The notes under the pieces are model-generated. The model ran no database searches and was not told the origin of the DNA. It worked only from the letters and a program-made list of their open reading frames with translations. Of a stretch of DNA of 64,000 nucleotides, positions 26,249 through 27,807 are shown one piece after another. Source of the DNA: a virus (lineage: Duplodnaviria; Heunggongvirae; Uroviricota; Caudoviricetes); the IMG/VR virus record IMGVR_UViG_3300047323_000678; one strand, written 5' to 3'. How positions within the stretch are numbered: position 1 is the first letter of the stretch; each line of letters opens with the position of its first letter. The position numbers were made by a program, and so were the translations under genes.

Positions 26249-26332
26249 TTATGTTTAACCCTATTTTAATGTCTGCTAAGAAAAAACCTGGTATGGCTTT
26301 GCTTTATAGCAAGTGGCCAGGGTTAAACACAT
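26249..26332 (+). promoter_or_regulatory. Candidate leader peptide ORF (MFNPILMSAKKKPGMALLYSKWPGLNT) rich in Lys codons, upstream of the LysRS-like gene
   Basis: 27-codon ORF with AAG-AAA-AAA. Followed by terminator hairpin 26361..26388 and then the LysRS-like CDS. Confidence 0.25.
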
Positions 26333-26360
26333 AAGAAAATCCTGAATCACAAGTTAAGCA

Positions 26361-26388
26361 AAGCCCGAAAGAAATTTCGGGCTTTTTT
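26361..26388 (+). terminator. Terminator/attenuator hairpin (aagcccgaaagaaatttcgggcttttttg)
   Basis: 8-bp stem gcccgaaa/tttcgggc plus T6, located between the leader ORF and the LysRS-like start. Confidence 0.55.
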
Positions 26389-26427
26389 GTTTTTGTAGTT
26401 TTACTTTTTAAATTAATGGAGAAAAAA

Positions 26428-27807
26428 ATGAATCAATATCAATACCGTGTAGTAAACCGAATTGCCGATCTTTATATTTATCGTCAAAATAGAGTTGTCC
26501 CTGAAGACACTCATGCAGTGACAGCAGGAAGAATTCTTAATCTTCGTTCGTATAGAAGCATCATCTTCTTTGATCTTTTTGAAGATGGTCAATTTATTCA
26601 ATGTGCTATTCGTTCAGGTTTAGCACCAGAAGCTTTTGCTTATTTTCAAGCAAATGTCTCCCGTGGTAATTTAGTTTGGGTGGATGGTAACTTTGGAACT
26701 AGTCAAACAGGTGAAATAACCTTATTTGTAGATAATGTTCAGTTAATTAATAGAAATGTTGAATTAATCGGTGATGCACATGAAGGTGTAAATCAAGCAT
26801 TGGGTCGCCAAGTAAGAGAATTAGACCTCATGTTAAATCCTGAATCTATGCAGCGTTTCCGTAACAGAAGCCAAATCATTTGGAGTATGAGAGAGTATTT
26901 TAATAGAAGAAGCTTTATGGAGGTAGAAACTCCTATTTTGCAATCTGTAGCTAGTGGGGCTCAAGCAACTCCATTTGTAACTAGATTTAATGCAAATAAC
27001 AGAGATGCTTATTTAAGAATTGCTCCAGAAACTTACTTAGTTCGTTTATTAGTTGGGGGTATGAGTAGAATCTTTGAAATTGGTCATAATTTTAGAAATG
27101 AAGGCTTGTCTCCAAGACATAATCCAGAATTTTCTATGTTAGAGTTTTATGAAACTTACAGAAATATGGAAGACACTATTGCTATGACCCAGGATATTAT
27201 TCTCAATGCAATTGAAAATATTGGACTAAATCCAAGTGAAGTTACTTTTGGAAGTTATACTCTTGATTTTAATAATTTCCAACGATTTACTGTTGCTCAA
27301 TCTTTACAACATTTCTTATCATATTCTGAAAGTGATGCAAATAGTAGAGAATTTTTATTGTCTATTATGAGAGAGCATAATATTACTAATACTATGCCAA
27401 GTGAAAATATTGAATGGTTACAGTATTTAATTTTTGATGCATTAGTTGAGTCATTATTAATTCAACCTACTTTCATTACTGATTTACCTGTAGAAGCAAG
27501 TCCTTTAGCATATAGTGAAGACAATAGAACTACAGTTCGTTTTGAGTTATTCTGTGCTGGTCGTGAAATTGCTAATGGTTTCCAACAAGTGTTGAGCTAT
27601 GAAGAACAAGTAGAAAGATTTAATTTTCAAGCTCAAATTAATGGTAGAGATAGTGCAATGGAAGCAGATATGGATTACATGAACTCAGTTCGCTATGGTA
27701 TCCCTACTGTGACTGGTTGCGGAATTGGTATTGATAGATTAGTGATGTTATTAACTAATACTGAAAATATCAGAGATATTATTCTGTATCCGATTGTCAA
27801 TGCATAA
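26428..27807 (+). CDS. Divergent class II lysyl-tRNA synthetase-like protein (N-terminal OB anticodon-binding domain plus class II catalytic core)
   Basis: Class II motifs: LRIAPETYLVRLLVGGMSRIFEIGHNFRNEGLSPRHNPEFSMLEFY (motif 2) and GCGIGIDRLVMLLT (motif 3). The ATG at 26428 has a GGAG SD (the ORF-track start at 26416 lacks one). Sequence is strongly diverged from canonical LysS. Confidence 0.75.
   Translation: MNQYQYRVVNRIADLYIYRQNRVVPEDTHAVTAGRILNLRSYRSIIFFDLFEDGQFIQCAIRSGLAPEAFAYFQANVSRGNLVWVDGNFGTSQTGEITLFVDNVQLINRNVELIGDAHEGVNQALGRQVRELDLMLNPESMQRFRNRSQIIWSMREYFNRRSFMEVETPILQSVASGAQATPFVTRFNANNRDAYLRIAPETYLVRLLVGGMSRIFEIGHNFRNEGLSPRHNPEFSMLEFYETYRNMEDTIAMTQDIILNAIENIGLNPSEVTFGSYTLDFNNFQRFTVAQSLQHFLSYSESDANSREFLLSIMREHNITNTMPSENIEWLQYLIFDALVESLLIQPTFITDLPVEASPLAYSEDNRTTVRFELFCAGREIANGFQQVLSYEEQVERFNFQAQINGRDSAMEADMDYMNSVRYGIPTVTGCGIGIDRLVMLLTNTENIRDIILYPIVNA

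Follow-up and report, generated by a model that had tools for sequence, protein, structure and literature searches.

We conclude that positions 26190..26427 of the viral record IMGVR_UViG_3300047323_000678, a 64,000-nucleotide (nt) stretch of DNA that we refer to as the window, most probably form a ribosome-mediated leader-peptide transcription attenuator that uses lysine codons and controls the gene directly downstream. That gene, lysS, would encode a divergent class II lysyl-tRNA synthetase (LysRS). The assignment draws on comparison of related sequences and on modeled RNA folding. An attenuation leader had been proposed in a sequence-only reading of this DNA, and the proposal gained support on three fronts: an antiterminator is present, the small open reading frame (ORF) and its run of three lysine codons (KKK) are conserved, and parallel leaders with glutamine, threonine or glutamate codons precede other synthetase genes.

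The leader begins with a sigma-70-type promoter found by a promoter scan (26190..26218, plus strand, as are the other parts of the two attenuators of the window and the synthetase genes behind them), with a −35 element TTGACG at 26190-26195, a 17-nt spacer and a −10 element TACAGT at 26213-26218. About 25 nt further on is the leader ORF (26251..26334), which is present in the ORF list and in relatives and specifies the peptide MFNPILMSAKKKPGMALLYSKWPGLNT in 27 codons followed by a stop. It contains three in-frame, conserved lysine codons, AAG AAA AAA (26278..26286), to which we assign the regulatory role, and a fourth at 26311-26313. Segment A (GGCTTTGCTT, 26295..26304), defined by pair counts and alignment, is a copy of the core of the terminator 3′ arm; taken as GGCUUUGCUU, the segment lies 9 nt past the third lysine codon. 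Two partners are available to it. Segment B (AGCAAGTGGCC, 26308..26318) lies within the leader ORF and is the candidate anti-antiterminator, as indicated by RNAalifold and pair counts, and segment C (AAGCAAAGCC, 26356..26365) is the candidate antiterminator partner, identified by complementarity and shuffling, with a 6-nt overlap with the terminator 5′ arm. The intrinsic terminator and its U-tract occupy 26360..26393; an 11-base-pair (bp) stem (26360-26370/26375-26385) is capped by a GAAA loop, giving AAAGCCCGAAA-GAAA-TTTCGGGCTTT (26360..26385) and then TTTGTTTTT. The whole leader RNA is about 165 nt long. From the end of the hairpin to the ATG of lysS at 26428 there are 42 nt, and a promoter scan between the terminator and the lysS start found no promoter-like site; therefore transcription of lysS requires read-through of the terminator. 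The sequence-only reading had recognized both the small ORF with its lysine codons and a hairpin roughly 40 nt ahead of LysRS. Both are real and the peptide was given correctly, but the ORF had been placed 2 nt off, at 26249..26332, and the hairpin at 26361..26388 instead of 26360..26385.

Mutually exclusive antiterminator and terminator structures had been named as the feature to look for, and the leader has them. Segments A and C are exact reverse complements, giving a 10-bp perfect helix that overlaps the terminator 5′ arm and is exclusive with the terminator. When the leader was shuffled 20,000 times, only 6 of the shuffled sequences had a 10-nt stretch perfectly complementary to the terminator 5′ flank or arm. 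The leader fold has a z-score of −3.4, and the A:B pairing is part of its minimum-free-energy structure. Two conformers are thereby predicted, one for termination (A:B together with the terminator, C:D) and one for antitermination (A:C).

A protein search placed the LysRS in a clade with a sharp boundary, made up of about 60 proteins of ~457 amino acids (aa) with 60-100% identity, beyond which identity falls to 41%, to an ordinary bacterial LysRS of 495 aa. We compared the DNA of 13 distinct relatives, taken from metagenome contigs as long as 1.33 Mb, with LysRS proteins 61-94% identical; one of them, L016, comes from a GC-rich genome. The genes upstream of lysS differ among these relatives in identity and orientation. 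In all 13, LysRS is preceded by 230-400 nt of non-coding DNA holding the same leader, with a TTGAC(G/T)-type promoter at the equivalent place, an ATG-initiated leader ORF of 22-33 codons, a leader stop codon 17-26 nt ahead of segment C, and the terminator. Summed over the 13 leaders, stop codons number 0 in the frame of the ORF, 28 in one of the alternative frames and 24 in the other, and Shine-Dalgarno-like GGAA or GGAG sequences precede most of the start codons. The lysine run, AAG-AAR-AAA, reads KKK in the ORF frame of 12 of the 13 leaders with synonymous AAA/AAG changes, and AAG accounts for 42% of regulatory lysine positions compared with 17% genome-wide. The distance from the first lysine codon to GCTTTGC is 15-18 nt in every leader, and GCTTTGC is itself invariant (13/13).

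The conservation of the small ORF, on which the sequence-only reading had made its proposal depend, thus extends to the frame and the lysine codons, and the peptide beyond KKK is not conserved. In L002 and L005, small indels cause the conserved nucleotides TATGGCTTTGCTT to be read as YGFA and not as MALL, with the frame restored later. An invariant RNA segment, GGCUUUGC, is kept while the peptide changes frame, and it pairs with its neighbor or with AAGCAAAGCC. The ORF and its lysine codons are kept, the peptide is otherwise free to vary and the RNA segments are fixed, as one would expect for an attenuator leader peptide and not for a functional small protein.

A recognizably homologous leader is found at a second, distant LysRS clade of about 17 members (36-37% identical, ~440 aa), one of which resides on a 1.9-Mb contig. 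Two leaders from this clade (L009 2058-2208 and L010 ~1008-1130) have SKK in place and a GCTTTG / CAAAGC core, with the peptides ..ASKKQLLLC and ..LSKKYTSALLKQKV, segment A as TGCTTTGTTG, segment C as CAACAAAGCA, and a terminator. Both are detected (E-values 5e-5 and 5e-4) by a covariance model of the 13 leaders in which neither L009 nor L010 was included. The model also matches the threonine leader described below (E-value 8e-6) and otherwise finds one copy per locus. Judged by these comparisons, the lysine leader seems older than the LysRS clade of the window.

Pair counts were taken from a MAFFT alignment of the 13 leaders (alignment A2). The A:C helix is paired in 93.8% of cells, compared with 65% or less for a shifted partner; its changes comprise one compensatory U-A to G-C replacement in the GC-rich L016 and G-U pairs in three leaders. 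For A:B the figure is 86.8%, and the RNAalifold consensus independently yields the A:B hairpin and the terminator. In the terminator, paired cells make up 98.6%, and its four covarying pairs all fall in the inner stem. The outer stem, AAAGCC/GGCUUU, is invariant and must match both A and D, and covariation is restricted to the part of the terminator outside the overlap with A:C. Covariation lends weak support to A:C itself because A and C hardly vary, and the case for this helix rests on its conserved complementarity and on the triple-constraint pattern, which has likewise been described for known attenuators (PMC1262725).

The position of a translating ribosome gives the predicted pairings a direction. 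We folded nascent transcripts ending in the terminator loop, at which point the 3′ arm has not yet been made, and kept unpaired a ribosome footprint from −15 to +12 or +15 around the aminoacyl site, which was moved codon by codon. For 12 of the 13 leaders, A:C has a predicted probability of 0.85-1.0 as long as the aminoacyl site has not passed the first or second lysine codon. Once the site reaches the codon that follows KKK, segment A is hidden under the ribosome and the probability drops to about 0, and it stays at 0 across A and B. In this model the lysine codons are thus the last waiting positions that leave segment A uncovered. The distant lysine leaders behave similarly, with an antiterminator probability that drops just after the regulatory codons.

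Leaders whose codon runs match the enzyme encoded downstream were also found at other synthetase genes of these genomes. Three glutaminyl-tRNA synthetase (GlnRS) loci, 54-63% mutually identical, have poly-glutamine leaders (MFKNVQQQQQQQGQQDWLWSAIV, MNHFFNQQQQKQQSQIIGYGVLLPC and MIKLFSQQAQQQQQQLLGRLVPII) with the runs MFKNVQQQQQQQGQQ.., ..QQQQKQQSQ.. and ..QQAQQQQQQ.., and a threonyl-tRNA synthetase (ThrRS) catalytic core of 384 aa, lacking both TGS and editing domains, is preceded by the leader MFNLNSTTTTTYLRLGRWFIAC, which reads ..STTTTTY... These GlnRS and ThrRS-core leaders are at L002 7340-7476, L018 7462-7620, L029 5809-5946 and, on the minus strand, L029 14707-14860. The window itself holds a second attenuator with glutamate codons, ahead of a gene for a protein resembling glutamyl-tRNA synthetase (GluRS; 36084..37040). 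This GluRS-like protein consists of the catalytic domain only (318 aa, Pfam tRNA-synt_1c) and scores 206 bits against the NCBIfam model gltX_bact and 143 bits against GluQRS, both under the cut-offs. Its leader has a promoter recognizable in the sequence (35873..35901; TTGACA at 35873-35878, a 17-nt spacer and TATACT at 35896-35901), an ORF encoding MNIVKHTIAKVEEEHYI (35936..35989) with the glutamate codons GAA GAA GAG at 35969-35977 (..VEEEH..), and a trp-type attenuator (35973..36052) composed of a 1:2 hairpin at 35973-35996 and a 16-bp 3:4 terminator at 36017-36052. Segment 2 (AGTGCTTTTG, 35988-35997) is complementary to segment 3 (CAAAAGCACT, 36019-36028), and the leader folds with a z-score of −4.7.

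In each of the glutamine, threonine and glutamate leaders a terminator lies directly before the gene, and a copy of the terminator 3′ arm lies 10-22 nt past the last regulatory codon. The predicted positional behavior is also shared. The glutamine leaders are permissive to antitermination up to, or just past, the last glutamine codon and reach 0 well ahead of the stop codon, and in the threonine leader the probability falls just after the regulatory codons. For the glutamate leader the antiterminator probability is 0.00 in the free RNA, 0.95-0.97 only with the aminoacyl site on GTT, GAA, GAA or GAG, and 0 thereafter. Comparative support for this leader was not obtained from the sole relative that was fetched (L030, 58% identical), which sits in a 15-tRNA array and has no leader.

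An unbiased scan was run on both strands of about 350 kb of window and related loci for any ORF of 10-45 codons containing a residue triplet and followed by a terminator and then a gene encoding 150 aa or more. Three matches were false positives and others were alternative-frame ORFs within the lysine leaders; all the rest were the leaders of these lysine, glutamine, threonine and glutamate synthetase genes. Within the window, stand-alone cognate leaders were found only at the LysRS and GluRS-like genes. The codon run matches the enzyme four times over (K, Q, T and E), and therefore a non-specific role for KKK cannot explain the pattern.

From these parts we infer a leader that would respond to charged tRNA(Lys), with the outcome set by the kinetics of pairing. 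Transcription would start at the leader promoter, and LysRS would be made only when polymerase reads through the terminator at 26360-26385. Pairing of A with the adjacent B would leave the terminator C:D free to form, and pairing of A with C would remove the terminator 5′ arm. When Lys-tRNA(Lys) is scarce, a ribosome would stall at AAG-AAA-AAA, the base of A:B (CCUGG:CCAGG) would be melted and A exposed, and A:C would then form and permit read-through into lysS. When Lys-tRNA(Lys) is plentiful, the ribosome would proceed over A and B, or A:B would re-form behind it, and the terminator would follow. With no translation at all, A:B and C:D would fold and transcription would end.

Several observations weigh against this account and have to be set beside it. 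Equilibrium folding that includes the full terminator always favors the terminator, and therefore the switch must be kinetic, as in trp. Segment B is downstream of A and is not covered by a ribosome stalled at KKK; therefore A:C has to prevail over a weakened A:B for read-through to occur. Folded as free RNA, only 3 of the 13 leaders, that of the window included, are predicted to favor A:B, and most others favor A:C, which suggests either high basal read-through or imperfect predictions. One leader, L012, is predicted never to form A:C and has a duplicated GCAAAGC that acts as a decoy in the folding. In most leaders A:C becomes possible once more in equilibrium folding when the ribosome sits at the stop codon. 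There are only three regulatory codons in a genome in which lysine makes up 10% of codons, L018 has KKH (AAG AAA CAC), and some leader ORFs have a weak Shine-Dalgarno sequence or none. The scheme is also not universal: a serine-codon leader predicted at the seryl-tRNA synthetase (SerRS) gene of L005 (6950-7080) was not found, and that gene has an ordinary promoter of its own after the terminator of the upstream gene. We take attenuation to cover some, not all, synthetases of the lineage. The folding caveats leave the kinetic details uncertain, and the overall interpretation as a lysine-codon attenuator is unchanged by them.

Two additional elements considered for the leader were discarded. Pairing of the KKK region with A, in the manner of trp segment 1, is weak and involves mismatches, and the flanking CC is not conserved. 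A tRNA(Lys) anticodon-arm mimic in the A:B loop, as in thrS, is contradicted by the loop sequence, which varies (UUAU, UUCAUU and others).

We also weighed other ways of explaining the same elements. Translation might act in the opposite direction, such that translating through A and B frees A, or KKK might be an intrinsic slow spot that reports ribosome availability and not lysine charging. The renewed prediction of A:C in most leaders when the ribosome occupies the last codons or the stop would fit such a switch, as would the location of B downstream of A, unlike trp segment 1. We consider it improbable, since the regulatory residue fits the amino acid of the enzyme for four synthetases and since inverse logic would cut synthetase output just when charging fails. 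Moreover, in the glutamine, glutamate and L009 lysine leaders the antiterminator probability is 0 past the regulatory codons, and segment 2 would be covered by a ribosome terminating at the stop codon, given where that codon is located.

It is also conceivable that the leader is an independent small gene, for a 27-aa protein or a ~165-nt RNA, and that lysS is expressed by constitutive leaky read-through. The element has its own promoter, a strong terminator and a well-folded RNA (z = −3.4), and in other bacteria attenuator RNAs released by termination can act in trans, as described for rnTrpL (PMC6614838). A gene of this kind would have no use for the conserved complementarity between A and the terminator arm, and it would not be expected to have parallels at other synthetases in the form of cognate-codon leaders. 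The peptide is unconserved beyond KKK and shifts frame in L002 and L005, the element is always directly 5′ of LysRS though other neighbors change, and the model search gives one copy per locus, only at LysRS; we therefore regard this explanation as very improbable. Finally, the hairpin could simply terminate the upstream operon (23010..26176), with the ORF and the complementarity arising by chance in AT-rich DNA. No terminator lies between the stop codon of 25160..26176 and the leader, and upstream transcripts therefore probably do end at 26385; terminators follow nearly every gene of the window as well. In several relatives, however, the upstream gene is on the opposite strand and the leader with its own promoter is still there. 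Relatives whose LysRS is as little as 61% identical keep the ORF, KKK and segments A, B and C, as do the more distant L009 and L010, and the complementarity recurs in just 6 of 20,000 shuffles. An origin by chance is thus scarcely credible, and the comparative data effectively refute it.

The mechanism proposed here is classical, being that of trp, his and pheST; what is new is the lysine case, the set of several synthetases and the giant replicons carrying them. In E. coli, pheST is preceded by a leader peptide with phenylalanine codons before the genes for phenylalanyl-tRNA synthetase, and the signal is the charged cognate tRNA, the product of the enzyme itself. To our knowledge, pheST is the only well-studied example of leader-peptide attenuation among synthetase genes. 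The lysS leader resembles it in placing a synthetase gene behind a cognate-codon leader ORF followed by an intrinsic terminator and a competing antiterminator. Unlike pheST, it uses lysine, with three tandem codons, has B downstream of segment 2 and inside the ORF, shows no sequence similarity, and belongs to an unclassified AT-rich giant replicon whose lineage has such leaders at several synthetases (lysine, glutamine, threonine and glutamate-like). With trpL of E. coli it shares a few tandem codons 15-20 nt before segment 2, a segment 2 that mimics the terminator 3′ arm, and a terminator more stable than the antiterminator, hence a kinetic decision. The glutamate leader of the window (35936-36052) reproduces the 1:2/2:3/3:4 layout of trpL exactly, whereas the lysine leader ORF continues for 15 codons across A and B and has its stop past B, not between segments 1 and 2. 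Having the anti-antiterminator 3′ of segment 2, within a longer ORF, is a minor architectural novelty.

The lysS leader also recalls T-boxes and the L-box lysine riboswitch, in which a leader terminator is read through when tRNA is uncharged or lysine is low. Those elements sense tRNA or lysine directly through a large RNA without translation, unlike the lysS leader, which is about 165 nt long and needs a conserved ORF. Firmicutes use T-boxes for synthetase genes. A search of the whole window against Rfam gave no match at gathering thresholds. At E-values up to 10 it returned terminator look-alikes only, such as Trp_leader (22 bits against a gathering threshold of 41) and Thr_leader (15 against 55), and even at this level there was no match to a T-box or a lysine riboswitch.

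Comparative genomics has predicted trpS and leuS attenuators with cognate-codon leaders in Streptomyces, with pheST cited as the gamma-proteobacterial precedent (PMC1262725). The Streptomyces cases involve other amino acids, another phylum and a single gene each, and that study contains no lysine, glutamine, threonine or glutamate cases. The statement in the sequence-only reading that no lysine-codon attenuator is known for lysS agrees with our full-text literature searches, in which no such attenuator turned up for lysS, for glnS, thrS or gltX-like genes, or in phages; many subscription papers were beyond the reach of this search, and an earlier report is possible.

The downstream ORF extends over 26416/26428..27807, and a GGAG Shine-Dalgarno sequence at 26418..26421, kept as (T)GGAG across relatives, favors the ATG at 26428 and a protein of 459 aa. 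Its recognition as a class II LysRS with an N-terminal OB domain proved correct by Pfam, NCBIfam and an alignment with LysU. Pfam reports tRNA-synt_2 (PF00152, 1.6e-71) and the OB anticodon-binding domain (PF01336), and the catalytic core has motifs 1-3. Of the relatives with a solved structure, E. coli LysU scores best (303 bits); it aligns end to end (LysRS residues 30-457 with LysU 88-521) and shares the motifs EVETP, YLRIAPE, FRNEG, HNPEF, RFE.F and G.GIGIDR. NCBIfam lysS models are the best matches at 403-419 bits, slightly below the curated equivalog cut-offs (TIGR00499, 402.8 versus 427.6 bits; NF001756, 419.2 versus 468 bits). The canonical lysine-pocket motif GF(S/T/N)ELND is absent, with its glutamate replaced by a glutamine that is invariant within the clade (Q387 in the window; alignment A3), and the N-terminal helix of about 35 aa present in canonical LysRS is missing. 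Owing to the missed cut-offs, the glutamate-to-glutamine change and the lost helix, we consider this a divergent LysRS lineage. The glutamate of the motif is presumably the residue that contacts the epsilon-amino group of lysine, and its substitution together with the loss of the helix may alter the substrate pocket or the sensitivity to analogues. Lysine specificity is suggested by overall homology and by the lysine-codon leader. The distant, ~440-aa LysRS clade likewise has glutamine for this glutamate and no ~35-aa N-terminal helix.

A specialized second LysRS, which the sequence-only reading had raised as an alternative, is compatible with an attenuator. One form of it, a relative of EpmA/GenX, the EF-P lysine ligase, can be set aside; that enzyme is core-only (~325 aa) with no OB domain, and the window protein has the OB domain and scores 198 bits against EpmA compared with 403-419 bits against lysS. 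The impression that lysS uses GC-richer codons than its neighbors was not upheld, its GC content being 33.3% against a mean of 28.0% for window genes (standard deviation 4.2) and its third-position GC 18.9% against 17.1% (standard deviation 3.6). Both values are within about one standard deviation of the window genes, and a foreign origin argued from codon usage is not supported.

The window has 27% GC, and its Shine-Dalgarno sequences, TATAAT boxes and GC-rich hairpins with T-runs after nearly every gene are bacterial-type expression signals. The layout is unusually modular and monocistronic, with nearly one terminator per gene, and convergent pairs share bidirectional GC-hairpin terminators (for example at 16072-16106, 20119-20148 and 28523-28703). 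Among about 75 ORFs in the window there was no housekeeping gene and no phage-structural gene, and Pfam and PHROGs searches with about 40 of its proteins gave no phage hallmark and no housekeeping gene. ARAGORN detected no tRNA or transfer-messenger RNA within the window. The LysRS clade was not found in GenBank phage records, IMG/VR or GTDB species representatives. The carriers, likewise absent from IMG/VR and from GTDB species representatives, are AT-rich and rich in ORFans, and the contigs behind four of the loci are 1.33 Mb (L002), 581 kb (L005), 286 kb (L006) and 251 kb (L018) long. ORFans, ankyrin-repeat proteins and paralogous families predominate in the window and related loci, which also hold scattered tRNAs, PTH2, NUDIX and nucleotidyltransferase genes and several synthetases, some of them truncated. 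For one window protein, the phage matches are to jumbo phages only. The carrier may be a huge phage, a giant plasmid-like element or an unusual bacterium; we regard a huge phage or another giant accessory replicon as likelier than a bacterial chromosome.

Some features of the neighborhood deserve mention in their own right. Six tandem paralogs of 320-340 aa (12089..16072 and 24173..26176) start with MK(L/I)PKIEKQI.K, continue into hydrophobic helices and match nothing in Pfam or PHROGs. Just upstream of the leader promoter, the (SN)n C-terminus of 25160..26176 is encoded by a hexanucleotide microsatellite, (AGTAAT)n, at 26107..26150. A second trio of paralogs is at 2402-3049, 3871-4464 and 4473-5063, and five ankyrin-repeat proteins are spread over the 64 kb (6508-8181, 9103-10029, 29647-30690, 38887-39567 and 49125-49844). 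Other window genes encode TerD, a Band_7 lipoprotein, NUDIX, metallophosphatase and Glu-synthase-domain proteins. In related loci, tRNAs lie beside synthetase genes (L007 11478-11567; L006 12697-13268), among them a tRNA-Ser with the unusual anticodon AGA, and Met, Leu(TAA) and Arg(TCT) tRNAs, and the 15-tRNA array with the GluRS-like relative in L030 also contains an RF1-like gene. By analogy, this clustering of tRNAs and synthetases resembles the translation gene sets of huge phages.

We suggest, as a tentative possibility, that these giant replicons (0.25-1.3 Mb), which look like huge phages or a novel kind of giant mobile element, put their own LysRS, GlnRS, ThrRS-core and GluRS-like genes under separate attenuators, which would read the charging of host tRNAs and induce only the matching auxiliary synthetase. 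The synthetases of this lineage, with the glutamate-to-glutamine change in the lysine pocket and lost domains, may have altered properties. If the interpretation is correct, the lysine attenuator and its glutamine, threonine and glutamate counterparts would represent a general and modular coupling of a synthetase to the charging of its own tRNA, and the attenuator modules may have been duplicated and recoded. They would provide compact natural sensors of about 165 nt for the charging of Lys-, Gln-, Thr- and Glu-tRNA, and the leaders highlight small ORFs that are overlooked by gene callers. Should the carriers be huge phages or similar elements, this would be the first indication that such elements sense host tRNA charging to control their translation genes.

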